A stretch of 32,000 nucleotides of DNA from Candidatus Pelagibacter sp. HTCC7211 (GCF_000155895.1 NZ_DS995298.1:810001-842000), one strand, 5' to 3'. Counted from the first letter of the stretch, positions 1,286 to 24,182 are shown. Notes: generated by a model not told the origin, from the letters alone. Program-made: numbers and translations.

Positions 1286-1313
1286 ATATTTGCATGAATT
1301 TCTATTTCGTCAA
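1286..1313 (-). promoter_or_regulatory. promoter TTGACG-N16-AAATAT, then N6-ATG (leaderless geometry) for the 1279..83 operon
   Basis: Read on the minus strand: TTGACG (1313..1308), 16-nt spacer, AAATAT (1291..1286), 6 nt, ATG (1279). Same register as the promoters at 7043 and 8581. Confidence 0.6.
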
Positions 1314-1323
1314 CTAGAGGAGC

Positions 1324-1351
1324 AGTGAAATGTTTACAATCTAATTTCACT
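1324..1351. promoter_or_regulatory. operator copy 1: AGTGAAAT-N12-ATTTCACT palindrome in a divergent promoter region
   Basis: Exact 8-bp inverted half-sites with a 12-bp spacer. It lies 10 nt from TTGACG of the minus-strand promoter and overlaps the -35/spacer of the plus-strand promoter for 1368. Confidence 0.75.
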
Positions 1352-1361
1352 TAGGTATGAT
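1333..1361 (+). promoter_or_regulatory. promoter TTTACA-N17-TATGAT, then N6-ATG for gene 1368..1850; buried inside operator copy 1
   Basis: TTTACA 1333..1338 lies in the operator spacer. TATGAT is at 1356..1361 and ATG at 1368. No Shine-Dalgarno sequence is visible. Confidence 0.55.
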
Positions 1362-1367
1362 AAAACT

Positions 1368-1850
1368 ATGTCAGGCTATTCTAGAAAATTAGTTTCATTA
1401 GAAATTACACTCAAAGAAATTATAAAAGATTTAAAAGCAGATGCTTTAAAAGAAATTACTGGTAAATCTGAATCTCATTTTAGAAAATGTAGTGATGAGA
1501 ATGATACTCAAGATATCCATCATATAGATTCAATTAAAATTGATATTGAGTGTTTAAAAAGAGGTTTGGGTAATCCAATGTTAAGTGCTCACGAAGATAT
1601 GTTGGAATCAACCAGTCCAGAGTATAAAAATTTAGATAATGTATCAAATACCTTAATTAACATTGGAGCAAAAATAGGTAAATTGATGGAAACTACTCAA
1701 AAAGCTACTAGCCCTAAAGGAGAAGGGGGCAGTAAAATTTCTGAAAGTGAAAAAAAACATATTAGTAAAGCTCTTAATGATGTTGAAGATAAAATATTAG
1801 AATTAAAACTTATTATTGAAAGATCCAATAAACTTAGTGAAATTAAATAG
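1368..1850 (+). CDS. hypothetical protein, candidate CII/CP76-like DNA-binding regulator (160 aa)
   Basis: ORF track. HTH-like segment ALKEITGKSESHFRKCSDEN. Its own promoter is overlapped by the operator, and its 3' end contains half of operator copy 2. The functional call is an inference. Confidence 0.6.
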   Translation: MSGYSRKLVSLEITLKEIIKDLKADALKEITGKSESHFRKCSDENDTQDIHHIDSIKIDIECLKRGLGNPMLSAHEDMLESTSPEYKNLDNVSNTLINIGAKIGKLMETTQKATSPKGEGGSKISESEKKHISKALNDVEDKILELKLIIERSNKLSEIK

Positions 1851-1863
1851 ATAACATTTCACT
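1836..1863. promoter_or_regulatory. operator copy 2: AGTGAAAT-N12-ATTTCACT
   Basis: Exact half-sites. The first half lies in the last codons of CDS 1368..1850. It is followed after 10 nt by TTGACG (1874..1879). Confidence 0.7.
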
Positions 1864-1900
1864 TCAATCTCAGTTGACGTAATAGAAAAGTGTGAGATTG
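1864..1900 (+). promoter_or_regulatory. -35 box TTGACG (1874..1879) bracketed by the inverted repeat CAATCTCA/TGAGATTG; promoter region of the 1941..6943 operon
   Basis: CAATCTCA 1864..1871 and TGAGATTG 1893..1900 flank the -35 box. The -10 is weak or unclear (GATTGT/ATTGTA). Unlike the other copies, the downstream gene has a leader with an AAGGA Shine-Dalgarno sequence. Confidence 0.4.
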
Positions 1901-1940
1901 TAAATTTATCAATAAAACAATCTAAAAAAAGGAAAATATA

Positions 1941-2672
1941 TTGAATAATTGTGAAATAAAGATGAAGACTGATTACAGAGATATTGTTAAGCTAAATTCG
2001 ATGAAAGATAAAACTGAAATGTTTAACTATTCTCCAAGTGAATTTGCCTTCGGTTTTGAGAGTTGTAAAAGATGTTATTATGATAAAAAAGTAAATAGTA
2101 TTGAACTAAAAGTTCCTTTTCCAGGAATATTCTCAAAATTTGATAGTTTACAAAAAAATTTTTATCACGGCAAATCAAGCAAAACTCTAACTGATAATCT
2201 TGAAGAGGGTGAAATTGTAGGTGATTTTAATAAAATGTTAAGATCAGAAGTTTTATATGATCTTAAAGATAGACCATTTACCATGAGTGGTAAAATAGAT
2301 GCTTATATTAAACATAAAGACTCATTCACTATAGTAGATTTTAAAACTACAAAAATTAATGAGAGTAAAATTGATGCTTATGCAACCCAGCTTCAAAGCT
2401 ATGCATTAATGATGGAAAAACCTAAAGAAGGTAGCTTAAAACTTACTCCAATAAAAAGATTAGGTATCTTTTGTTTTGAGCCAAGTAATATTTCAAGAGC
2501 AGAGAGTAATAATTGCAACATTCATATGGATACACAGTGGTATGATATACCAAGAGATGACAAAGATTTAATTGGTTATATTACCAAAATTCAAGATGTT
2601 TTATATTCTAAAGAAACTCCAGAGTCTGGATCAAGTTGTGGAATATGTAATTTTAGAAAGGTAATGAAATAA
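1941..2672 (+). CDS. PD-(D/E)XK nuclease, Cas4/RecB-like, with 4 Cys (243 aa)
   Basis: Motifs: GKIDAY, IVDFKTTK (D-x-K) and QLQSYALMM (QxxxY). CKRC near the N-terminus and CGIC near the C-terminus fit an Fe-S/Zn cluster pattern. TTG start at 1941 follows AAGGA; alternative ATG at 1962. Confidence 0.7.
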   Translation: MNNCEIKMKTDYRDIVKLNSMKDKTEMFNYSPSEFAFGFESCKRCYYDKKVNSIELKVPFPGIFSKFDSLQKNFYHGKSSKTLTDNLEEGEIVGDFNKMLRSEVLYDLKDRPFTMSGKIDAYIKHKDSFTIVDFKTTKINESKIDAYATQLQSYALMMEKPKEGSLKLTPIKRLGIFCFEPSNISRAESNNCNIHMDTQWYDIPRDDKDLIGYITKIQDVLYSKETPESGSSCGICNFRKVMK

Positions 2673-2968
2673 TGCAAAAACTTTCTAATTCTGAAGTTAA
2701 AGTTACAGAAGTCATTAGTTTTATTTTAGAACAATATAGAAATGAAAAAGTTAATCATGATCTTGAAGTTGCATCTGAATTAATTCTTATTGCTAGAATT
2801 CTTCATCAAAGATTTAAAATTTCAAATGGAACACAGGTTAAAGAGGATAAATCTGTTGTTTTAGCTAAAAATGAAATTCTTAAAGAAATTAAGGATGACG
2901 AATATTATGAGCTTATTAAAAACTTTATAAAAGATTATCGACAATTCAGAGATAAAAACGTAAATTAA
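2672..2968 (+). CDS. hypothetical helical protein (98 aa)
   Basis: ORF track. The ATG overlaps the stop of the upstream nuclease gene (TAATG), indicating translational coupling. Confidence 0.55.
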   Translation: MQKLSNSEVKVTEVISFILEQYRNEKVNHDLEVASELILIARILHQRFKISNGTQVKEDKSVVLAKNEILKEIKDDEYYELIKNFIKDYRQFRDKNVN

Positions 2969-2973
2969 TATTC

Positions 2974-5535
2974 ATGTGGAAGTTCATTAAGTACAGCTTC
3001 AATAAAGCTTTTGAGAAAAATTTATTAAATTTAATAATTTTTTTTATTGCACTTAGTTTTATTGGAGTATTTGTAATATCAACAGTAATTTTTATATTTC
3101 AAAAAATTGGACTTTTATCAGAAAATAACTTTTTTACAGAAACACTATGGCAAGGATTTAGGTTATTTTTTGATCAAAATGCTATTTTTGTTCTTGACAG
3201 TAATAAAAATAATTTTTTTGATTTCTTATTAAAGTTTAACCTTACCATATTTGGTGTTTTAATATTTTCTTCAATTATTGGAATTGTCACAAATTTTATA
3301 TCAGGAAGAATAGAATCGTTAAGATCTGGTAAAACCAAAATTGAAGAGGAAAATCATATTATTTTTTTTAATTTTTCTAGAAGATTAATTCCACTATTAA
3401 CTGAGTTATGTAATGCTTATGTAAAAGAAAAGCAGTCTTTTGTAATTGTAAGCACTGAAGAGCCTTTAACAGTAATGGAAAAAATAAATAGTGTTGTCAA
3501 AATTCCAAAAAATATAACGATAGTTGCTAGGAAAGGTTATGCTTGGCAAAAAAGTCTGCAAGATAGAATTAATTTAGAAAAAGCAAAACAAATTATCATT
3601 TTAAAACCAGATGCAGGTGTGACTTATAAAACTGAACTAGATTGTGATGTTGAGGTTGGAAAAAGTTTAGCATCACTACTTGCAAGTAAACATTGGGATA
3701 TAAATCCATGTAAGGTCTTAGCTGAGTTTCATGATGAAAAAAGAGGCTTTTTATACCTTTATTATTCAAAAGATATCATTGTTAAAAAAATGGAACAGAA
3801 GGGTAATACTTGGCAAGATCCAGATATCATCAGTTCATCAAATTTAAAAAACTCTTTATTAGCACAATGCACTAATACACCTGATCTATCAGAAATTTAT
3901 GACAACTTATTTGGTTATGAGGGATCAGAAGTTTACTTTGTTGATCCAAAGAATGAAAAATATTCTGAAATTCTTAAAAAAAACCAAGGCAAAACTATTA
4001 AAGATTTAAATGCTTTATGTGACAACATAATAATTATTGGATTTTTCCAAGATGATCAAAGACACAACTTAGGTTGGAATAAACTTTTTATTAATAGTCC
4101 AATAGATTTTCCTTTATCAGATAATTTTGGAATTATTTGTGTTGCTAAAGATGAAGACCAAATAATTAATGAGTTAAACAATATAGATAATCAAAGTAAA
4201 GAAGTTGCAGATATTTCACCTAATTTTAAAGAAGATAATAAGGATATAAATGTTTCAATGTTTGATTATAGTAAGGAGAATAACAATCTCTATCTTACTA
4301 GTCTAATCAACTCTATTATTGATAGTAACTATTATAATAATCTAAAAAGTCTTAAAGTTTACAGAGATAAATTTAATGGCAGTTTAACTGATAAAAAGTT
4401 TTTACCAGCTGCACCTGATTATAAAATTAATAAAGATGAGGTTAACCACCCTTTATTAGGAATTATATTTCATATTTTAAAAACTGAGGAAAAAAATAAG
4501 TTTGGTTTTCAAATATACTCAATCAATAAACAATCATCTTTAAGTGAAAAATTAAGCTCAGGAGATACTATTTTAAATATAGCATCAAAATCAGAAGCAG
4601 AGAGTCTTAAAGGAAAATCTGAAATTGAATTATCTTATAAATCTGCACCAGGAGGTGCTCATAAAAAATTTAAAGAAAAATTAATTAAATTAATTAATGA
4701 AAATGAAGAAGTTATTTTAATTGTTAAAAAATCTAGTTCTAAAGACATAGAGTTTATTGAAATTAAAAAAGATCAAATATCAAAAGATCAACAGCAAATT
4801 CATCAATCATTTGAAGAGATACAGTCGAACCGTCAACAAATGATCAAAGATCTTAATGATAATGTAACCTTTGAAGAAAAGAACTTAGAGGATGTTACAA
4901 AAGACATGAGTATGGGCACAGTAATGGAGTATGAAAAAGATAATTGTTATATCTTCTTTAATGAAACTAACCAACAGATCCAAAAGTTTAGAGAAAACCC
5001 TACAGAAGACCATGTAATGATTAATAATTTTGTTGGATTTTCAAACTTAAGACTAAGTGATGGTAAAATGGCAGATCATTCAATGATTACTGAGATTAAT
5101 GGATATAGAAGTAAAAAAATCCTAGAAGACTATAAAGCAAAGTACTTTAGTCCTTATATAGGCAATGATGTAATTGAATTGAATTCAATTGTGAGTAAAT
5201 ACTTAGCTGCAGGTACATTTGATATTAAAAATACTAAACTAATTGATCTTCTCTTTAGTAGAACACATACTGTTAAAGCTCACACATTAGTTGATAAAGA
5301 ATTAACAGCTACATTTTGTGAATTAGAAAAATACTTTCAAAATAAAAATGAAACCTTAATTGGAATAATTGACTATGAATTTGATAAGGATCAAAGACGA
5401 AAAATTAAAAATATATCAATTAACCCTAAGCAAACTGAAAACATTAAATTAGATCAAGGGGATCGATTAATAACTATTGCAAACTTTAATGATTTAGAGA
5501 TAGTTAATCAAAGTAGATATTTACACATATTATAA
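2974..5535 (+). CDS. CASTOR/POLLUX(DMI1)-like RCK-domain cation channel homolog with an inserted middle domain (853 aa)
   Basis: N-terminal TM helices. The segment TLWQGFRLFFDQNA...ESLRSGKTKIEEENHIIFFNFSRRL matches, by eye, the pore/filter-to-RCK junction of CASTOR (ALWLSWTFVADSGNHA...DSLRKGKSEVIEKNHILILGWSDKL). Colinear matches continue through both RCK-like halves to the C-terminus. Confidence 0.65.
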   Translation: MWKFIKYSFNKAFEKNLLNLIIFFIALSFIGVFVISTVIFIFQKIGLLSENNFFTETLWQGFRLFFDQNAIFVLDSNKNNFFDFLLKFNLTIFGVLIFSSIIGIVTNFISGRIESLRSGKTKIEEENHIIFFNFSRRLIPLLTELCNAYVKEKQSFVIVSTEEPLTVMEKINSVVKIPKNITIVARKGYAWQKSLQDRINLEKAKQIIILKPDAGVTYKTELDCDVEVGKSLASLLASKHWDINPCKVLAEFHDEKRGFLYLYYSKDIIVKKMEQKGNTWQDPDIISSSNLKNSLLAQCTNTPDLSEIYDNLFGYEGSEVYFVDPKNEKYSEILKKNQGKTIKDLNALCDNIIIIGFFQDDQRHNLGWNKLFINSPIDFPLSDNFGIICVAKDEDQIINELNNIDNQSKEVADISPNFKEDNKDINVSMFDYSKENNNLYLTSLINSIIDSNYYNNLKSLKVYRDKFNGSLTDKKFLPAAPDYKINKDEVNHPLLGIIFHILKTEEKNKFGFQIYSINKQSSLSEKLSSGDTILNIASKSEAESLKGKSEIELSYKSAPGGAHKKFKEKLIKLINENEEVILIVKKSSSKDIEFIEIKKDQISKDQQQIHQSFEEIQSNRQQMIKDLNDNVTFEEKNLEDVTKDMSMGTVMEYEKDNCYIFFNETNQQIQKFRENPTEDHVMINNFVGFSNLRLSDGKMADHSMITEINGYRSKKILEDYKAKYFSPYIGNDVIELNSIVSKYLAAGTFDIKNTKLIDLLFSRTHTVKAHTLVDKELTATFCELEKYFQNKNETLIGIIDYEFDKDQRRKIKNISINPKQTENIKLDQGDRLITIANFNDLEIVNQSRYLHIL

Positions 5536-5542
5536 TAAACTA

Positions 5543-5740
5543 ATGACTAAGTATGACCTTAAAAATAAGCTAAGATTACAATTAAGTGATGATATGAGGG
5601 AATTTGCGATAATAAATAATTTAACTGAACAAGATGTAATAAAAATTAGAGACAATAATTTGATACCTCAACCCCATCTAGGTTTTTTAACTGCATTATT
5701 AAAAGATAAACATTTTGAATTCTATAAAGAGGAAAAATGA
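5543..5740 (+). CDS. small hypothetical protein, possible short HTH (65 aa)
   Basis: ORF track. REFAIINNLTEQDVIKIRDNN resembles an XRE-type helix-turn-helix. The stop overlaps the next start (ATGA). Confidence 0.5.
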   Translation: MTKYDLKNKLRLQLSDDMREFAIINNLTEQDVIKIRDNNLIPQPHLGFLTALLKDKHFEFYKEEK

Positions 5741-6306
5741 CTGACGAGAATAAAATAGAAAACCTTGATGAAAGAATTAACTTAATTAAAAGTGCTTTTG
5801 AATTTTCTGAAGCAAAATGGATAGAGCCATTAGAAACAACCGAAGGAGATATTGTTGATCAAAAAATAAATACCAAAATAAGAGGAATGTATTATTTCTA
5901 TGAAAATAATTTTTATTTGGGTATTTCTTCAAAAGGAACTATTTATGATAGACACAAAACACATAAACCAAAATTTGATGTTGATTTACATCTTTTGTGG
6001 AAAAATCATTGGGACTTCTCAAAAGTTTGGCAAGAAGGTGTAAAAAAATTTTATCTAGAAAAAGATCCAGGGCCTATTCCATTTATTAAAAGAATTAATA
6101 AAGATCACAAACCTTATGCTGAAGAATTTACATTTCCAGTAATACATAAAATTAATACTGATAAAATCAAAGTTTTAATATGGAATATGGATCATTTACC
6201 TCCATGGCAAATTGAAATGATAGAAAAAATTGCAATATATAAGCTATGGCCATATTGTAATGATGAAACAAGCAGGAGGAGACAATATGAAAATAGACAT
6301 CTATAA
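5737..6306 (+). CDS. GIY-YIG domain protein (189 aa)
   Basis: GMYYFYENNFYLGISSKGTIYDRHKTH (GIY...YLG...R..H), then later EMIEKIAIYKLWPYCN (Glu/Asn of the GIY-YIG core). The GIY-YIG spacing is shorter than canonical. Confidence 0.55.
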   Translation: MTDENKIENLDERINLIKSAFEFSEAKWIEPLETTEGDIVDQKINTKIRGMYYFYENNFYLGISSKGTIYDRHKTHKPKFDVDLHLLWKNHWDFSKVWQEGVKKFYLEKDPGPIPFIKRINKDHKPYAEEFTFPVIHKINTDKIKVLIWNMDHLPPWQIEMIEKIAIYKLWPYCNDETSRRRQYENRHL

Positions 6307-6943
6307 ATCAAAATTTTTTATATTTATGGATTTTACTCAAGCAGAGATTATGGAAATGTCTTTTTCTAAAAATAGTGATTCAGAAAAAAAAATTCTTAGA
6401 GAAGGAAAAAAACATTCAAAAGAAATGACTAAATTATTTGATATAATAATTGATCCTTTTAAAAAAAATGGTCTTGACCAAACAGCTGAAAATAAAAAAC
6501 ATATATCTAGTTTAAAAAAGTATAAAAAAGAATATGAAGACATGTTTAACTACACTCCAAATCAAATGAGAAAATGGACAAGGAAGCTTTTATTGTTAAA
6601 AAAAAATATAATAGAAAAATTTATTCTTGAACAGCACCCAATAAAGAAATGCACCTATAGATATATTAATCCAATGCAAATAGGATTTTATGAACATTTT
6701 AAAATAGGACTAAATCACAAGGAGCCTCAAAAAAAAACAAAGTTTAATAAAGATATTCACTATGGACATCAAATAACAGTAGAGTTTAAAAATAATAATA
6801 AAGCAAATCAATTGAAAGATAAAAAAAAAGCTATAAATTTAAAAAATAAATTTGAAAAGTTTTATAATAAAAAATTTCTTACCCCATATAAATTTAATTT
6901 ATTTAATTTTGAAGATAAGATTGTAATTTCTAACTTGAATTAA
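6287..6943 (+). CDS. Lys-rich basic hypothetical protein (218 aa)
   Basis: The track ORF 6230..6943 was trimmed to the ATG at 6287, which follows a strong AGGAGGA (6273..6279). Overlaps the upstream gene by 20 nt. Confidence 0.55.
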   Translation: MKIDIYKSKFFIFMDFTQAEIMEMSFSKNSDSEKKILREGKKHSKEMTKLFDIIIDPFKKNGLDQTAENKKHISSLKKYKKEYEDMFNYTPNQMRKWTRKLLLLKKNIIEKFILEQHPIKKCTYRYINPMQIGFYEHFKIGLNHKEPQKKTKFNKDIHYGHQITVEFKNNNKANQLKDKKKAINLKNKFEKFYNKKFLTPYKFNLFNFEDKIVISNLN

Positions 6944-7004
6944 ATAATTTAGTCTATTTAAAAGCTATTAACCTATTTAACCAGGATAATAAACGTATTC
7001 ACAA

Positions 7005-7032
7005 AGTGAAATTTATCATTAAAAATTTCACT
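7005..7032. promoter_or_regulatory. operator copy 3: AGTGAAAT-N12-ATTTCACT
   Basis: Exact half-sites, 10 nt upstream of TTGACG 7043..7048. Confidence 0.75.
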
Positions 7033-7042
7033 CCCACCTGAG

Positions 7043-7070
7043 TTGACGGATTACACTTTTGCCTTATGAT
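7043..7070 (+). promoter_or_regulatory. promoter TTGACG-N16-TATGAT, then N6-ATG (leaderless geometry) for gene 7077
   Basis: TTGACG 7043..7048, TATGAT 7065..7070, ATG 7077. Near-identical to 8581..8608. Confidence 0.65.
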
Positions 7071-7076
7071 TAGTTT

Positions 7077-7637
7077 ATGAATACATTTAAATCTAACGAA
7101 GAAAATACTATCAGTAACTTTGTTTCAATTAACGAAGTAATTAACTATGAACCACCAAAATATATTCCTAACTGGGATGGTAGCTTTAATAAGATTAAAA
7201 GTGGTAAAAGCTCATACTTTAGACCCAATAAAGAGTTTTCTATTTTTAATATAAATATTATTAACAGTAACTCATTAAGATTAGATGCAAAATCTGAAGG
7301 TATTTATATTATCTTAAGTGAAAAGTTTAATTTCTTTTATGTTGGAAAAACCTTATCTAATATAAAACAAAGATTACACTCACACATACAAAAGCTTACC
7401 TCAACAAATAACAATAGGTATACAACACCTCTTAAATGGCAAAAGTTAGCATTTATCAGATATAATGCTTTAAAAGAAGAAAGTGTAAAGTTAGATGATC
7501 TTAAGATTAAATTTTATCATTCATCTGAATATTCAATGTGCAGTATTGATGAGCTAGAAAATAATATATATCTAAAATATAAAGCTTTATTGCCCAAATA
7601 CATATCATTGAATGATCCAAAGGCGCTTGAAAGTTAA
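7077..7637 (+). CDS. GIY-YIG nuclease domain protein (186 aa)
   Basis: Canonical GIYIILSEKFNFFYVGKTLSNIKQRLHSH (GIY-N10-YVG...R..H) followed by IDELENNIYLKY (catalytic Glu/Asn region). Confidence 0.7.
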   Translation: MNTFKSNEENTISNFVSINEVINYEPPKYIPNWDGSFNKIKSGKSSYFRPNKEFSIFNINIINSNSLRLDAKSEGIYIILSEKFNFFYVGKTLSNIKQRLHSHIQKLTSTNNNRYTTPLKWQKLAFIRYNALKEESVKLDDLKIKFYHSSEYSMCSIDELENNIYLKYKALLPKYISLNDPKALES

Positions 7638-7730
7638 AATTAATTTTAATAAGTTATTAGAAGGTAAAATATTTGCAGATAAAGATTAAGAAAAATTAAA
7701 AATACTTGATGAATGGATAGAAAAAAATAA

Positions 7731-7991
7731 ATGACAGATATATACAAAAAAATAACTGAGCTTAACTCCAAGTATGGTAATGATTCTTCTGAATTTGAAG
7801 AAGAATTAACTGAGCACCTTAAGAAGAAGTTTCCTGAACAATATAAATTATCATTGAAAGATCTTAAAAATGATGGTTCAGATGATCCTGAAATGGAAAT
7901 GACACCAGGTAGATTTGCAGATCATATTGGTGATAAAAGTGAAGAGTTATTGAAAGAATATGAAGCTATTCTAAAAAAACTTAATGGATAA
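7731..7991 (+). CDS. small acidic hypothetical protein (86 aa), paralog of 8248..8523
   Basis: ORF track. Shares EEEL..(H/K)LK..F.E.YK...(D/E)L.N...PG....I.D with the product of 8248..8523. Confidence 0.55.
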   Translation: MTDIYKKITELNSKYGNDSSEFEEELTEHLKKKFPEQYKLSLKDLKNDGSDDPEMEMTPGRFADHIGDKSEELLKEYEAILKKLNG

Positions 7992-8001
7992 AATAGGATA
8001 A

Positions 8002-8244
8002 ATGGCTTTTGAATATAAAAAACTTGGTAAACTTCAAGATCATTTAGAAGCAGAAGCAACTGACTGGATAGAAAATTATATCAAGGACCTACATGGAGTT
8101 AATGATTCGGTAGAGCTTACAAAAGAACAAATAAGTGAAATTGATAAAGCAGCTGAGGATGAGAAATTAGATATCTATGTAGGTTTAGCACTGAGAAATA
8201 TAGTTCAAGCTTGGTATGACCATAACGAACCCGATACTCTTTAA
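8002..8244 (+). CDS. small acidic hypothetical protein (80 aa)
   Basis: ORF track. Its stop is 3 nt from the stop of the convergent gene 8248..8523. Confidence 0.5.
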   Translation: MAFEYKKLGKLQDHLEAEATDWIENYIKDLHGVNDSVELTKEQISEIDKAAEDEKLDIYVGLALRNIVQAWYDHNEPDTL

Positions 8245-8247
8245 AAC

Positions 8248-8523
8248 TTAGTTTTCTAAATTATCAAACCAATCATTAACAATAGTTAAAGCATTAGCTT
8301 GATCAGCTTCAGGCAAATCTTCTATATAAGCTGATATAGTTCCAGGTGATGGTATTTCTTCTTCTGGATTATTAAGTTCATTAGCTGCAATTTTATAACT
8401 TTCACCAAAACTTTCTTTTAACTTTTTTGCTAATTCTTCCTCAAGAGATGTTGCATTGCCTGGACTGTTATTATTGTAAATTTTGTCCATTACTTCATTA
8501 ACTCTGTTACGTAAATTTCCCAT
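8248..8523 (-). CDS. small acidic hypothetical protein (91 aa), paralog of 7731..7991
   Basis: ORF track. Its upstream region runs into operator copy 4, with possible TTAATT-N16-TATATT overlapping the operator. Confidence 0.55.
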   Translation of the reverse strand: MGNLRNRVNEVMDKIYNNNSPGNATSLEEELAKKLKESFGESYKIAANELNNPEEEIPSPGTISAYIEDLPEADQANALTIVNDWFDNLEN

Positions 8524-8542
8524 ATTTAAATCTAATATATTT

Positions 8543-8570
8543 AGTGAAATTGTTCAATTAACATTTCACT
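8543..8570. promoter_or_regulatory. operator copy 4: AGTGAAAT-N12-ATTTCACT in a divergent promoter region
   Basis: Exact half-sites, 10 nt upstream of TTGACG 8581..8586. On the other strand it overlaps the putative promoter of 8248..8523. Confidence 0.75.
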
Positions 8571-8580
8571 CCTAGCTTGG

Positions 8581-8608
8581 TTGACGGATTAGGTTTCTGT
8601 TTTATGAT
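8581..8608 (+). promoter_or_regulatory. promoter TTGACG-N16-TATGAT, then N6-ATG (leaderless geometry) for gene 8615
   Basis: TTGACGGATTA...TTATGATTAGGTTATG parallels 7043..7079 almost base for base. Confidence 0.65.
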
Positions 8609-8614
8609 TAGGTT

Positions 8615-8806
8615 ATGAAAACATATAAACCTTTTAAGTTAAAAATAAAAAAAAAATCTACCTATAAACCAATACGTTTTAAAAAGCCTAAACCTTATAA
8701 AAGGGGCAGGTTATTAAAAAATGGTATTACTCAGCATATGAGAGTTTCAATTACAGGTAGACGTTATTGGACACCGATTATCACTAAAATAGATCGTCCA
8801 GACTAA
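8615..8806 (+). CDS. very basic small hypothetical protein (63 aa)
   Basis: ORF track. Lys/Arg/Pro-rich (KLKIKKKSTYKPIRFKKPKPYKRGR). First gene after operator copy 4. Confidence 0.45.
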   Translation: MKTYKPFKLKIKKKSTYKPIRFKKPKPYKRGRLLKNGITQHMRVSITGRRYWTPIITKIDRPD

Positions 8807-8824
8807 TAATTTTTTCATAAAAAA

Positions 8825-9112
8825 ATGAATAATAGTTTTAGATTCGAGACTAATTTTAATAATCCAATACTCTATGAAGTTATTTTCTTAAATGACCAAG
8901 TTACTACAATCGAATTTATAATCCGAGTTTTAAAACATATTTTCAATAAGGAACATAAACATGCTCTTAAACTTACCAGAAAAATTCATGAAGAAGGATA
9001 TGGAGTTGTTGGGTCATATATTTATGAAATTGCAGGACAGAAAGAATTAGAAACAAGTTTGATGGCAAGAGATGAAAATTTTCCTTTAAGAGTTGTTATA
9101 AAAATAAAATAA
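8825..9112 (+). CDS. clpS: ClpS-like ATP-dependent Clp protease adaptor (95 aa)
   Basis: YEVIFLNDQVTTIEFIIRVLKHIF...ALKLTRKIHEEGYGVVG...PLRVVI is colinear with the ClpS core (VILLNDDYTPMEFV..VL...F...A...M..VH..G.A.CG). Confidence 0.75.
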   Translation: MNNSFRFETNFNNPILYEVIFLNDQVTTIEFIIRVLKHIFNKEHKHALKLTRKIHEEGYGVVGSYIYEIAGQKELETSLMARDENFPLRVVIKIK

Positions 9113-15402: not shown

Positions 15403-15553
15403 TATAGGATAACCAGCACAAGACCAGCACACAGAGATATAAAATAAAAAAAATTTACTTATAGGTCTTGTTCAATTATAAATATTAGCATAAACACTCA
15501 TGAAATTCATTAATGCCCTCGTGGTGAAATTGGTAGACACAAAGGACTTAAAA
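15403..15553 (+). repeat. direct repeat DR-R (partner of 13584..13734), continuous with intact tRNA-Leu
   Basis: See DR-L. Preceded by the perfect palindrome TCCTATA-aag-TATAGGA (15393..15409). Confidence 0.85.
15454..15482 (+). promoter_or_regulatory. candidate tRNA-Leu/nadK promoter TTTACT-N17-TATAAA
   Basis: Good hexamers and spacing about 35 nt upstream of the tRNA. The same element is duplicated at 13635..13663. Confidence 0.4.
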
Positions 15554-15600
15554 TCCTTGCCGCTTGCGGAGTGCCAGTTCGAGTCTGGCCGAGGGCACCA
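15515..15600 (+). tRNA. tRNA-Leu (anticodon UAA)
   Basis: Manual cloverleaf: acceptor GCCCTCG/CGAGGGC, anticodon loop CT-TAA-AA, long variable arm, T-loop TTCGAGT, encoded CCA. Confidence 0.9.
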
Positions 15601-16540: not shown

Positions 16541-17581
16541 GTGAAAAATATTTTCATCTCATCACTTTTTTATTTATTTTTATTTTTACCATATTTAAAT
16601 TATACAAATGCTGATCACACACTTTTGCATAATTTAAATCAAAAAAAAGCAAAATCCAAAAATGAAATACAAGGATCAACATCGGCCAAAGACACTACTA
16701 AAACTCCAACTTTAGAAAAGTGTAAAAAAAAGATTGCTACTCTAGCAGTTGTTGAGCCGCAAGATTATGAGATGTTGGCATTATCACAATACTCTTTACC
16801 TTCACCAACATCATTAATAAGACTAATAGTACAACAGTCTAATTGTTTTATTGTTTTGGAAAGAGGTATTGCTATGCAAAATTTATTACAAGAAAGAACT
16901 CTTTCATCTTCAGGAGAGTTAAAGCAAGACCAAAATATGGGTAAAGGTCAAATGATTACAGCTGATTATATTTTAACACCAACGATTATATTTAAAGAAG
17001 CTAACACCGGAGGTGTGGGTGGATTATTAGGGGGATTATTACCTGGCAACGCTGGTTCTGTTGCTGGAATTATTGGAGGTAGTTTAAAATTTAGTGAGTC
17101 TCAAACCTCACTTACACTAGCTGATACAAGAAGTGGAATCCAAGTTGCTGCTGCTGCTGGTGCTTCTAAAAAATCAAGTTTTGGAGTTGTTGCAGGTTTA
17201 GGAGGAAGCTCAGCTGCAGCTGGTTTGGGTGCTTACTCAAATACTCCTGAAGGTAAAGTTGTAGCCGCAGCTTTTTTACAAACTTATAACTCTATAGTAG
17301 ATACAATTGAAGGTGATAAAGACCTAATAAGAGAAAACTCCTTACTAGAATTTAAAAAAGAAGGAGGAAAGAAAATTAAAAAAGCAAAAAAAAGTATTGT
17401 TGGAGAAGTTAGATTATCAAAAATAAATAATGTTCCAGTATTTACAAAACCTGATGGAGAAAATATTATATTTAAACTTACTTCAAAAGAAGAGGTTGTT
17501 ATATTGGGTGAAGAGGGAGATTACTATAATATAATGGGATCTGGTGGAGAAGGTTGGGTAAAAAAAATTTTAATTAAATAA
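16541..17581 (+). CDS. CsgG-family protein with Gly-rich insert and C-terminal SH3b-like domain (346 aa)
   Basis: SLIRLIVQQSNCFIVLERGIAMQNLLQERTL and ITADYILTPTIIFKEANTGGVGG parallel CsgG (AMLVTALKDSRWFIPLERQGLQNLLNERKI; ANIMVEGSIIGYESNVKSGGVGA). The C-terminus VPVFTKPDG...VVILGEEGDYYNI...GWVKK is SH3b-like. Confidence 0.6.
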   Translation: MKNIFISSLFYLFLFLPYLNYTNADHTLLHNLNQKKAKSKNEIQGSTSAKDTTKTPTLEKCKKKIATLAVVEPQDYEMLALSQYSLPSPTSLIRLIVQQSNCFIVLERGIAMQNLLQERTLSSSGELKQDQNMGKGQMITADYILTPTIIFKEANTGGVGGLLGGLLPGNAGSVAGIIGGSLKFSESQTSLTLADTRSGIQVAAAAGASKKSSFGVVAGLGGSSAAAGLGAYSNTPEGKVVAAAFLQTYNSIVDTIEGDKDLIRENSLLEFKKEGGKKIKKAKKSIVGEVRLSKINNVPVFTKPDGENIIFKLTSKEEVVILGEEGDYYNIMGSGGEGWVKKILIK

Positions 17582-17685
17582 CTAAATTATAAATAAATCC
17601 TGTAGGCAATTGCTACACACTTAATATAAATATTTATATAAAATCAAATTCTTCAAATATAATAATCTTTGATTTAATTTAATGA

Positions 17686-17736
17686 TGGTGCCCCCGCACG
17701 GATTCGAACCGCGGACCTATTGATTACAAATCAATT
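17686..17736 (-). repeat. exact copy of the 3' 51 nt of tRNA-Thr (att-like site 2)
   Basis: TGGTGCCCCCGCACGGATTCGAACCGCGGACCTATTGATTACAAATCAATT is identical to 20935..20985. Confidence 0.9.
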
Positions 17737-17790
17737 CTAAAAGTTTAAATAAACATATGTTTGCAACAATAATCTTAAAATATATTTAGC

Positions 17791-17820
17791 TTGGCAACAA
17801 TCTGGCAACAGTGATAAAGT
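17791..17820 (+). promoter_or_regulatory. cassette B promoter TTGGCA-N18-TAAAGT (TG-extended), N6-ATG; overlapped by the tandem 11-mers TGGCAACAATC/TGGCAACAGTG
   Basis: 11-mers at 17792..17813, -10 at 17815..17820, ATG at 17827. Confidence 0.45.
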
Positions 17821-17826
17821 TTTTTT

Positions 17827-18417
17827 ATGAAGCGAAATGGTTTCACATTAATAGAACTCTTAGTCGTAGTAGCAATCATCGGTATACTTGCTGCAGTGGG
17901 TGTTGTTGCTTATGATGGTTATACTAGTATTGCAAAAGATAATGCTGTTAAGGTAAATTGTAAACAAGTTGCTTCAGAGATAGGTTCGAAGTTTGGTTTT
18001 TGTGCAATGAATCCTGGATCATCTATACAACTAAAATCAATTGGTGGAAGACAAACCATAGAAAATGTTCAATGTGATAAAAATAAAACCAGTACAGGAC
18101 AGATGTTAATCAAAATAGTTAATCATTTAAATAATGAAGGTTATAAAAATCCTTATGGACATAATAGTGGTACAGAAGGTGTTCATAATGGACCCGGTGC
18201 CTATCAAGCAAGTTCTGGACTTTGGTGGCAAGATTTAATGATTAAAGGAAATAGCTATGATAAGTTATCACTAGGTAGATGTGTAGTGCAATATCATACC
18301 AATGGAGATATTGGTGTTACAGGTTTTTTTGATGCGGGAACTTTTAAAGCAAATGGTCGTGACCTTTCAGAAGCATTGCAATGGACACAATTAATCATGA
18401 CAGCTGATACTAGATGA
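17827..18417 (+). CDS. type IV pilin-like / pseudopilin protein with prepilin N-terminal motif (196 aa)
   Basis: MKRNG|FTLIELLVVVAIIGILAAVGVVAY is the canonical prepilin cleavage/methylation domain. Confidence 0.85.
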   Translation: MKRNGFTLIELLVVVAIIGILAAVGVVAYDGYTSIAKDNAVKVNCKQVASEIGSKFGFCAMNPGSSIQLKSIGGRQTIENVQCDKNKTSTGQMLIKIVNHLNNEGYKNPYGHNSGTEGVHNGPGAYQASSGLWWQDLMIKGNSYDKLSLGRCVVQYHTNGDIGVTGFFDAGTFKANGRDLSEALQWTQLIMTADTR

Positions 18418-18914
18418 AACAAAAAGGTTTCACCCTAATAGAACTCTTAGTCGTAGTTGCAATCATCGGTATTCTCGCTGCAGTAGGTGTGGTTGCTTAT
18501 AGTGGATATACGAGTGGTGCAAAGAAATCTGCCATTAAATCAAATTTTAAAACTGTAGAAAAATATACATCTGCTGAATTAATGAAGTGTCAAATAGGTC
18601 AAACAGATATTTTTATAAACTCTGGATCAAATAAAGTTAGTTGTAGTGGTGTAGATAATCCAGGTAGAACTTATACAGCAATGGTTTTTGATCCTAGTCT
18701 TAGATTCTTAAATCCAATTAATAATGGAATTGGAAATAGAGCTGACCAACATGTATTAAGAAACGATGTTTATAAAGGATCAAACATACCAGACAACATG
18801 ACTGGTTATATTTTTTTAAATTTCGGATCAACTTGGCCAGCAACTATGAGATCTTGTATTGAGGCACCTTGTTCAAATCCAAACAACATCTTAACTTCAA
18901 GTATTAATTATTAG
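18414..18914 (+). CDS. type IV pilin-like / pseudopilin protein, paralog with divergent C-terminus (166 aa)
   Basis: MKQKG|FTLIELLVVVAIIGILAAVGVVAY. ATGA overlap with the upstream pilin gene. Confidence 0.85.
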   Translation: MKQKGFTLIELLVVVAIIGILAAVGVVAYSGYTSGAKKSAIKSNFKTVEKYTSAELMKCQIGQTDIFINSGSNKVSCSGVDNPGRTYTAMVFDPSLRFLNPINNGIGNRADQHVLRNDVYKGSNIPDNMTGYIFLNFGSTWPATMRSCIEAPCSNPNNILTSSINY

Positions 18915-23652: not shown

Positions 23653-24182
23653 TGAAAAATTGGTATATTGTTCAATCACATTCAAGCTTTGAAAACAAAG
23701 TGGCTGGCCTTATTAAAGAAGAGGCTGATAAAGCTAAAATTGGTGAAAAATTTGAGGAAATTATTGTTCCAACTCACGATGTAACTGAAGTTAAAAGAGG
23801 TAAGAGAGTTCAAAGAAAAAAGAAATATTTTCCAGGTTACGTGCTAATCAAAAGTGAAATGGACAACAATATCTATCACATGATTAAAAACATAAAGAGA
23901 GTGAGTGGTTTTCTTGGATCAAAAGGAATTCCTGTTCCAGTTTCAGATAAAGAAATAGAGAAGATATTAGGTCAAATAAAAGATGGTGTGGCTCAGCCAA
24001 AATCTGGTATAGAGTACAGCGTTGGTGAAAAAGTTCAGGTAGTTGATGGTCCTTTTGCATCATTCAGTGGAATGGTGGAAGATATAGATGAAGAAAAGTC
24101 TAGACTTAAGGTCTCTGTTTCTATATTTGGACGTCCAACACCAGTAGATTTAGAATATAACCAAGTTGAGAAAGTAAGTTAA
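23652..24182 (+). CDS. nusG: transcription termination/antitermination factor NusG
   Basis: WY.VQ..S..E NGN start and a C-terminal KOW ([22 protein letters not shown]). TAATG overlap with secE. Confidence 0.95.

Follow-up and report, generated by a model that had tools for sequence, protein, structure and literature searches.

SAR11 bacteria are the most abundant heterotrophs of the ocean, with minimal transcriptional regulation and hypervariable regions full of unknown genes. The DNA analyzed here is a 32,000-nucleotide stretch from the SAR11 bacterium Candidatus Pelagibacter sp. HTCC7211 (NZ_DS995298.1:810001-842000; the whole of it is called the window), in which four copies of a 28-bp palindrome adjoin GTTGACG promoters in the neighborhood of an open reading frame (ORF) at 1368-1850, identical to PB7211_595 of this organism. 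The genes tuf, secE, nusG, rplKAJL, and rpoB occupy the right third of the window, and the left 21 kb is AT-rich (23-33% GC) and holds mainly hypothetical genes. Homologues of ORF 1368-1850 in other SAR11 genomes are bordered by these same conserved flanks, a beta-eliminating lyase side and a SpoU methylase/tuf side, with different gene content in between; therefore, the locus is one of the SAR11 hypervariable regions. It may be hypervariable region 3 (HVR3) of Wilhelm et al. 2007, for which "unknowns" plus a recB-like gene are listed. Protein-family matches reveal no integrase, repressor, or structural phage genes in the window. The sites, predicted promoters, and genes concerned are the following (aa, amino acids).

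1324..1351, predicted operator O1, AGTGAAAT-N12-ATTTCACT, centered near -58.5 with respect to the leftward promoter and near -30.5 with respect to the rightward promoter of the regulator
1836..1863, predicted operator O2, overlapping the regulator gene in its final 15 nt and preceding the promoter of the nuclease operon
7005..7032, predicted operator O3, upstream of the GIY-YIG unit
8543..8570, predicted operator O4, upstream of the unit for a 63-aa basic protein and ClpS, also over the likely promoter of ORF 8248-8523 (minus strand)
1286..1313, minus strand, predicted leftward promoter, TTGACG-N16-AAATAT, then N6 and ATG at 1279
1333..1361, plus strand, predicted promoter of the regulator itself, TTTACA-N17-TATGAT, then N6-ATG, predicted leaderless, with its -35 box within the O1 spacer
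1874..1901, plus strand, predicted promoter of the operon from 1941, TTGACG-N16-GATTGT with TGn in front (extended -10)
7043..7070, plus strand, predicted promoter, TTGACG-N16-TATGAT, then N6 and ATG at 7077, predicted leaderless
8581..8608, plus strand, predicted promoter, TTGACG-N16-TATGAT, then N6 and ATG at 8615, predicted leaderless
1368..1850, plus strand, candidate regulator, 160 aa (PB7211_595), with an N-terminal helix-turn-helix (GKS-ESHFRKCSD) and long C-terminal helices
83..1279, minus strand, target unit 1, small exported or lipoprotein-like proteins (95, 190, and 114 aa)
1941..6943, plus strand, target unit 2, a Cas4-like PD-(D/E)XK nuclease, 98-aa and 853-aa proteins, then 65-, 189-, and 237-aa proteins
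7077..7637, plus strand, target unit 3, a GIY-YIG domain protein; may extend through 7731-8244
8615..9112, plus strand, target unit 4, the 63-aa basic protein and ClpS
8248..8523, minus strand, possible extra unit, an acidic protein of 91 aa that starts 19 nt away from O4; its weak promoter, TTAATT-N16-TATATT, is embedded

The exact palindrome occurs four times in the window and in none of 100 dinucleotide-preserving shuffles, which bears out a first-pass annotation of this DNA that had pointed to four exact copies with differing 12-bp spacers. When up to three mismatches are allowed, only one extra match appears, at 23853 in the nusG region, and it is at chance level. The geometry is 8-N12-8, with the half-site centers 20 bp apart, and all four copies are intergenic or, for O2, overlap only the last 15 nt of ORF 1368-1850. 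O1 and O2 are separated by 512 bp and O3 and O4 by 1538 bp. The heptamer GTTGACG is found six times in the 32 kb (0.47 expected), and four of these copies adjoin the palindromes (1314-1308 on the minus strand, 1873, 7042, and 8580). In every case the TTGACG hexamer starts exactly 10 nt past the palindrome, as had been claimed, the bracketed G of the annotated "(G)TTGACG" being nucleotide 10 of the linker. Reading the sequence also agrees with the statement that three copies run on as TTGACG-N16-(-10 box)-N6-ATG. The fourth promoter, at O2, serves a TTG start at 1941 led by a Shine-Dalgarno sequence, and its block GTTGACGTAATAGAAAAGTrTGAGATTGT is conserved.

The same arrangement recurs in related SAR11 loci, which were retrieved by protein and not by motif (85 loci, comprising 80 metagenome loci and five long contigs, 452 kb). 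The core NNTGAAAN-N12-NTTTCANN has 96 unique instances in this set, whereas about 2.5 would be expected as estimated from base composition. In 74 of 74 occurrences TTGAC comes at offset 10 from the palindrome, and never at another offset within 0-29; 48 unique composites of palindrome and promoter are represented. Orthologous sites preserve the half-sites together with the -35 and -10 boxes, whereas their spacers vary. For example, O3 has orthologues in contigs L146, L158, and L167 with the half-sites kept and a different spacer, TTATCATTAAAA, TTATTACATAAG, or TAAACAATAAAA, depending on the locus. The position of O2 in orthologous loci is +468 to +471 relative to the start of the regulator, and wherever a homologue locus of 76% identity or more has enough upstream sequence, O1 precedes the ATG by 16 nt. 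Moreover, the O1 spacer is conserved as GTTTACAA in all close homologue loci, together with a TAnGAT -10 box. O4 is kept in L146 and L208, the version in L208 being a AATGAAAT/ATTTCATT variant. Variants of this kind are symmetric and follow the gene in diverged clades (56-66% identity), where AATGAAAT..ATTTCATT, GGTGAAAT..ATTTCACC, and AGTGAAAG..TTTTCACA are found, and in L208 the variant operator stands also at the orthologous target promoter, upstream of the 63-aa protein. Also, the 190-aa protein of the leftward operon has an orthologue in contig L147 (59% identity, E 1e-81) that, in this rearranged genome, lies 5 kb from the regulator homologue, with its operon still preceded by AGTGAAAT-N12-ATTTCATT. 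Since half-sites are kept while spacers diverge, selection on protein contacts, not recent copying, accounts for the pattern. On this comparative evidence the four palindromes are real, conserved operator sites locked to promoters. The annotated claim of a sequence-specific, symmetric DNA-binding protein acting over several units is supported by the 48 versions of the module, the invariant phasing, the drifting spacers, and the operator kept at the unlinked operon.

The promoters themselves share a further feature. The order -10 box, N6, ATG is found at 1368, 7077, 8615, and 1279 (minus strand) and in 32 of the 48 composites. No Shine-Dalgarno sequence is present at the first genes (windows 1356-1370, 7065-7079, 8603-8617, and 1277-1291 on the minus strand), and internal operon genes, such as that at 2672, have GGA-type Shine-Dalgarno sequences. 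Leaderless mRNAs are thus predicted for most first genes. Start-site data for HTCC7211 have been published (PMC5069720); the start sites used here are predicted ones, taken about 7 nt past the -10 box. With these starts the operator would extend from about -72 to -45 at the four TTGACG promoters and from about -44 to -17 at the regulator promoter, where it encloses the -35 box. This last promoter matches 10 of the 12 consensus positions and is among the best-scoring promoter-like sites of the region. As to dependence on an activator, core hexamers with 10 of 12 consensus matches argue neither way in a 28% GC genome. A generic promoter scan gave 54 promoter-like sites against 65.6 expected.

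The 10-nt linkers between palindrome and -35 box are 60% GC, compared with 23% for the 12-nt palindrome spacer and 28% for the background. They are mostly C/T-rich and end in G, both in the window (1352-1361, adjoining O1, 1864-1873, 7033-7042, and 8571-8580) and in the 48 composites of L146-L231, and a (T/G)A(A/T)TAG block past the -35 box is also conserved. The GC-rich linker could possibly be an anti-UP element or a contact surface.

Of the proteins encoded here, the product of ORF 1368-1850 would be the likeliest binder of the palindromes. Its putative recognition helix, KSESHFRKC(S/T)D, is almost invariant among homologues, alongside an invariant TGAAA/TTTCA operator core, and the variants in which CSD is replaced by CTD (serine to threonine) accompany altered operators. 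Common descent of the sequences makes this correlation between helix and operator no more than suggestive. Two candidate binders had been put forward in the first-pass annotation, and for the first of them, 1368..1850, position, co-occurrence with the sites, and homology to the CII protein of phage 186 speak strongly. The second, the 65-aa ORF at 5543-5740, has no DNA-binding match and is missing from diverged loci that still have operators, and it was rejected. Domain searches found a DNA-binding domain in no other island protein.

The relationship to CII was traced in several steps. In the window protein, the Pfam family Phage_CP76 (PF06892, phage regulatory protein CII) is matched by the C-terminal half only (12.9 bits, E 0.1). 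It is the sole Pfam family that recurs, in 36 of 51 close homologues, below threshold, and in 21 of 40 members of another set, with E 1.5e-4 for the best close homologue. A family profile recovers 322 relatives among 1.84 billion representative proteins, P0176 (4e-16), P0219 (2e-12), P0228 (6e-12), and P0257 (3e-9) among them, and on PF06892 these four score 33.6, 28.7, 34, and 41 bits, respectively, all above 26. By these scores ORF 1368-1850 is linked to Phage_CP76 through intermediate sequences. P0257 belongs to a prophage module in which a CI-like (Peptidase_S24) gene followed by two rightward genes, the second being P0257 itself, lies by ERF and YqaJ recombination genes.

In a structural comparison the matches are weak. 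An AF2 model built on a diverse alignment has a predicted local distance difference test (pLDDT) of 86 and a predicted template modeling (pTM) score of 0.50, and it supersedes an earlier model from close homologues only (pLDDT 69), for which the fold search was uninformative. A Foldseek search of the new model against 350,542 Protein Data Bank (PDB) chains places chains of 186 CII (PDB codes: 6VPE, 6VLI, and 6VMH) in six of the top seven positions, with E 0.1-0.9, and these entries are confirmed as 186 "Regulatory protein CII". Also, a non-significant hhalign alignment sets GKSESHFRKCSD opposite GMNVQTLRNKLNP, the helix-turn-helix of 186 CII, which holds the V36E/Q37S DNA-binding mutation. A sequence-profile search of the PDB with the family gave spurious acetyltransferase matches only. 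No relatives of the regulator protein were confirmed in IMG/VR viral contigs, and no literature was found that links SAR11 or Pelagibacter with the Phage_CP76 family.

Relatives of the regulator occur in other surroundings as well. Two members with 38-47% identity (L234 and L236) are found in AT-rich (28% GC) marine contigs, on islands with CHAT protease, HATPase_c_3, RmuC, ARPP-1, and ExoI-like genes, which suggests that CII-like regulators are commonly associated with defense-type variable islands. In L147/L148 (6100-11200), from a diverged SAR11 lineage, the regulator homologue stands beside a radical SAM/SPASM enzyme with tiny ORFs (29-55 aa) resembling those of ribosomally synthesized and post-translationally modified peptides (RiPPs), and an Ion_trans channel gene lies immediately 3' of it; the cargo differs and the operator is the same.

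Our preferred interpretation, to which we assign a probability of roughly 0.6, is that the four palindromes are the operators of a divergent chromosomal relative of 186 CII, which would activate the target promoters in the manner of a class I activator and repress its own gene. A symmetric oligomer of the 1368-1850 protein, at least a dimer, would bind the two inverted half-sites, whose centers are two helical turns (20 bp) apart. At the four TTGACG promoters these half-sites would lie near -48 and -68, on the same face of the helix as in 186 CII and one turn further upstream. RNA polymerase would then be recruited, probably through the alpha C-terminal domain seated on the GC-rich 10-bp linker. 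Where an A/T-rich UP element would aid alpha, the linker is GC-rich, and this would fit a promoter in need of an activator. For the gene of the regulator the outcome would be the opposite: RNA polymerase would be excluded by a bound O1, giving negative feedback, and since the operator encloses the -35 box and spacer of that promoter, autorepression is most likely.

The positions near -48 and -68 agree with those of the first-pass annotation, given the predicted starts, and its proposal of an activator would be a tentative reading for the four units, because the core promoters there are near consensus. However, the proposal would not extend to the regulator's own promoter at O1, nor possibly to that of ORF 8248-8523 at O4, both of which would be repressed. 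From their sequences, at least one and probably two further promoters would be embedded in operators, the one at O4, with repression there, being assigned with low confidence.

Several observations weigh against this interpretation. The window protein falls below the Phage_CP76 gathering cut-off (12.9 versus 26 bits); direct comparison with 186 CII gives an hhalign probability of 0.6-2% (from the single sequence and from an 18-sequence alignment) and hmmsearch scores of 1-3 bits, neither significant; and the fold matches are weak, with TM-scores of 0.32-0.40 and E about 0.1 at best. Because the direct gathering score and the direct similarity fall short and the context is not that of a phage, ORF 1368-1850 is best described as a divergent relative of Phage_CP76 and not as a demonstrated member. 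Moreover, about one-third of the homologue loci with 56-66% identity have no core-matching operator near the gene, and branches at or below 47% identity (the L232 prophage, L234, L236, and L238) show no recurring inverted repeat with 20-bp spacing. The regulator may also be non-local, with further sites elsewhere in the HTCC7211 genome, the scan having covered the 32-kb window. Finally, the target core promoters match 10 of the 12 sigma-70 consensus positions and may not need an activator.

A side observation concerns one of these distant branches. In L238, upstream of a 34%-identical member with a Phage_CP76 match, a GC-rich CCGGAGG-N16-CCTCCGG repeat is found at 1120-1151, in a contig that is otherwise 29% GC, and it may be the operator of that branch.

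With core promoters this close to consensus, a model of repression or looping has to be considered as well; it is the strongest rival, although we regard it as rather unlikely. Here the same protein would occupy the same sites and act as a repressor at all promoters, either through a tetramer that loops the DNA between operator pairs or by blocking alpha upstream of -35. Promoters so close to consensus would be constitutive, the operators are paired, O1 clearly lies over a core promoter, and 186 CII self-associates beyond dimers. However, operators that end 10 bp upstream of -35 leave RNA polymerase unoccluded, and fixed 10-bp phasing is needed by activators and not by loop-forming repressors. 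Single operators beside targets also exist, for example at 15208 in L147 and 2386 in L208, and the characterized relative, 186 CII, is a pure activator (PMC6593788).

Distinctly improbable is a second alternative, in which another regulator, a host global factor or some other island protein, binds the palindromes and ORF 1368-1850 is merely one of the targets. It gains from the fact that we infer binding by ORF 1368-1850, whose direct similarity to CII is weak, and from some homologue loci without a recognizable site. Nonetheless, the motif accompanies the gene across differing genomic contexts and neighborhoods, and the operator variants sort with the protein clades (CSD versus CTD in the recognition helix). 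The unusual 20-bp spacing of the half-sites is that of the 186 CII family, and, as noted, the other island proteins lack a DNA-binding match.

That the repeats would be non-regulatory, a dispersed repeat, a recombination site, or an RNA hairpin or terminator copied along with a promoter cassette, is highly improbable: O3 and O4 are indeed homologous from the palindrome into the first ~8 codons, and the palindromes could pair as RNA, but with 8 AT-rich pairs and 12-nt loops they form weak hairpins (-5 to -9 kcal/mol) with no T-tract after them and no Rfam match, they lie upstream of promoters, and their half-sites are preserved while the spacers have diverged, among copies and orthologues alike. 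Neither whole-element copies with flanking duplications nor a GC-rich terminator stem was found at the four sites, whose spacers differ. Weak hairpins, the missing T-tract and Rfam match, and conserved phasing thus argue for a protein-binding operator in register with RNA polymerase.

The composite of palindrome, N10, and TTGACG was found in no IMG/VR viral contig. The palindrome alone is matched at no fewer than 120 loci in bacterial genome contigs and 15 in viral contigs, and none of the matches listed has a TTGACG partner; as instances of the same element these were rejected, being chance matches or unrelated, such as terminator-like repeats of Bacillales. The latter are a multi-copy element, AGTGAAATTGAGyGnGCTCAATTTCACT, with T-runs on both sides (L007, L019, L020, L023, L027, L038, L066, L072, L074-L076, L092, and L095), of a bidirectional-terminator or REP-like kind and unrelated to the SAR11 operator. 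Also, five IMG/VR contigs (L121, L128, L129, L130, and L133) share AGTGAAAT-N12-ATTTCACT symmetrically flanked by GAGGGG, beside a TTTACA..TATAAT promoter, and by its sequence this is a conserved, operator-like phage site of another kind.

With regard to the genes that the proposed activator would control, target unit 1 runs on into pilin-like (N_methyl) genes in related contigs, where further pilin-like genes are found past the left edge of the window (614-1123 in L136). The nuclease of target unit 2 matches Cas4 in PADLOC (E 1e-10) and a PHROG annotated "CRISPR/Cas system associated" (E 1.6e-9), and the 853-aa protein of the same unit has a weak match to the Castor/Pollux ion-channel domain. 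The trio at 1941-5535, formed by the nuclease, with its C-terminal cysteines, and the 98-aa and 853-aa proteins, is conserved in L146 and may be an uncharacterized defense-like module. The gene content of the island matches no known system, and its richness in nucleases hints at defense or mobile-element functions.

The modules of O3 and O4 (7000-7101 and 8538-8639) are homologous through the start codon and the first ~8 codons (MNTFKS.. and MKTYKP..), and the same extended homology is present in the L146 and L208 orthologues (ATGAAAACATATAAACC). It looks like a duplicated or portable cassette of operator, promoter, and start placed before unrelated genes, and, since the homology reaches into the coding sequence, duplication contributed to it.

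Elsewhere, the variable region contains a tRNA-Leu(TAA) gene (15515-15600) directly upstream of an NAD kinase gene; this tRNA gene could mark the boundary of an island or a site of integration. The stretch 16541-18914 encodes a CsgG-like lipoprotein that has an SH3 domain and, after it, two proteins resembling type IV pilins (N_methyl).

The locus would thus provide a concrete, conserved circuit within a hypervariable region, with a defined operator, a candidate regulator (PB7211_595), and four to six promoters with predicted starts, that is, a rare local regulon in a bacterium noted for very little gene regulation. Its predicted targets include the Cas4-like nuclease, the GIY-YIG protein, the large protein with the weak channel match, pilin-like proteins, and ClpS. 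The function and control of island genes become open to tests in vitro or in E. coli, an advantage given the difficulty of SAR11 genetics. A bolder extension, which we consider quite unlikely, is that a switch protein of the phage CII type has been domesticated and now acts as master activator in a hypervariable SAR11 island by means of portable ~90-bp cassettes. If so, genes landing behind a cassette (nucleases, pilin-like proteins, or ClpS) would at once gain regulated, leaderless expression, and the repeated cassettes would be homology anchors for gene swapping within the island. This would be a previously unrecognized way for a streamlined genome to organize how its flexible genes are expressed, perhaps in an inducible program against phages or for surface variation.

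Among known systems, the closest comparison is 186 CII at the pE promoter (PF06892; PDB codes: 6VLI, 6VPE, and 6VMH). The phage 186 GenBank record gives the CII site as a 28-bp stretch, ATGTTTG-N13-CAAACAT, with half-site centers 20 bp apart, and from its position at -38/-58 in pE the protein touches both the alpha and the sigma subunit (PMC6593788). Both systems share a small protein of 160-170 aa with an N-terminal helix-turn-helix and, as far as sequence geometry goes, a 28-bp site with inverted half-sites 20 bp apart in fixed register with a sigma-70 promoter. However, the SAR11 operator would stand one helical turn upstream (-48/-68 instead of -38/-58), clear of the -35 box, the target promoters have good -35 boxes and number four to six instead of one, and the autoregulatory operator encloses the -35 box of the regulator's own promoter. 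The SAR11 locus is also without phage context, and the sequences compared directly show no significant similarity. For the little-studied family of 186 CII, this would be an extension from one promoter in a phage to a regulon of several promoters on a chromosome, the site being shifted by one helical turn. New here would be the setting, which is chromosomal and non-phage and belongs to a streamlined, free-living bacterium, along with the regulon of several promoters, the shifted operator, the embedded autoregulatory operator, and the leaderless cassette.

More generally, the arrangement resembles class I CRP promoters such as lac P1, which also have a symmetric site upstream of -35, on one helical face and in strict phasing. 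In lac P1 the CRP site is centered at -61.5, and class I architecture leaves about one alpha C-terminal domain footprint between activator and -35. In the SAR11 promoters, with starts as predicted, the site likewise lies upstream of -35 in fixed register (TTGAC at offset 10 in all 74 occurrences), whereas the protein has an unrelated fold and the 28-bp site, its half-sites separated by two turns, has a predicted center of -58.5.

The other systems are more distant. The late promoters of the P2 family have a TGT-N12-ACA dyad near -55. Their activators, P2 Ogr, P4 Delta, and 186 B, also are element-encoded and serve several promoters from an upstream dyad, but they are zinc-finger proteins of ~70 aa, unrelated to the SAR11 helix-turn-helix protein, and the half-site differs; 186 B is annotated in the phage 186 record as a homologue. 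Lambda CII, which is functionally similar and unrelated as a protein to 186 CII, is likewise a phage-derived activator of several promoters (PRE, PI, and PaQ) with sites in fixed register with the -35 region; in contrast, these sites are direct repeats, TTGC-N6-TTGC, that flank the -35 box, and the protein family is unrelated. As in the LysR-type architecture, the SAR11 regulator is divergent from a target operon and a shared site, O1, would do both jobs, although the protein family differs, no T-N11-A box is present, and sites are found also far from the regulator gene. By analogy, the circuit most likely operates as 186 CII does at pE and, in broader terms, as class I activators do.

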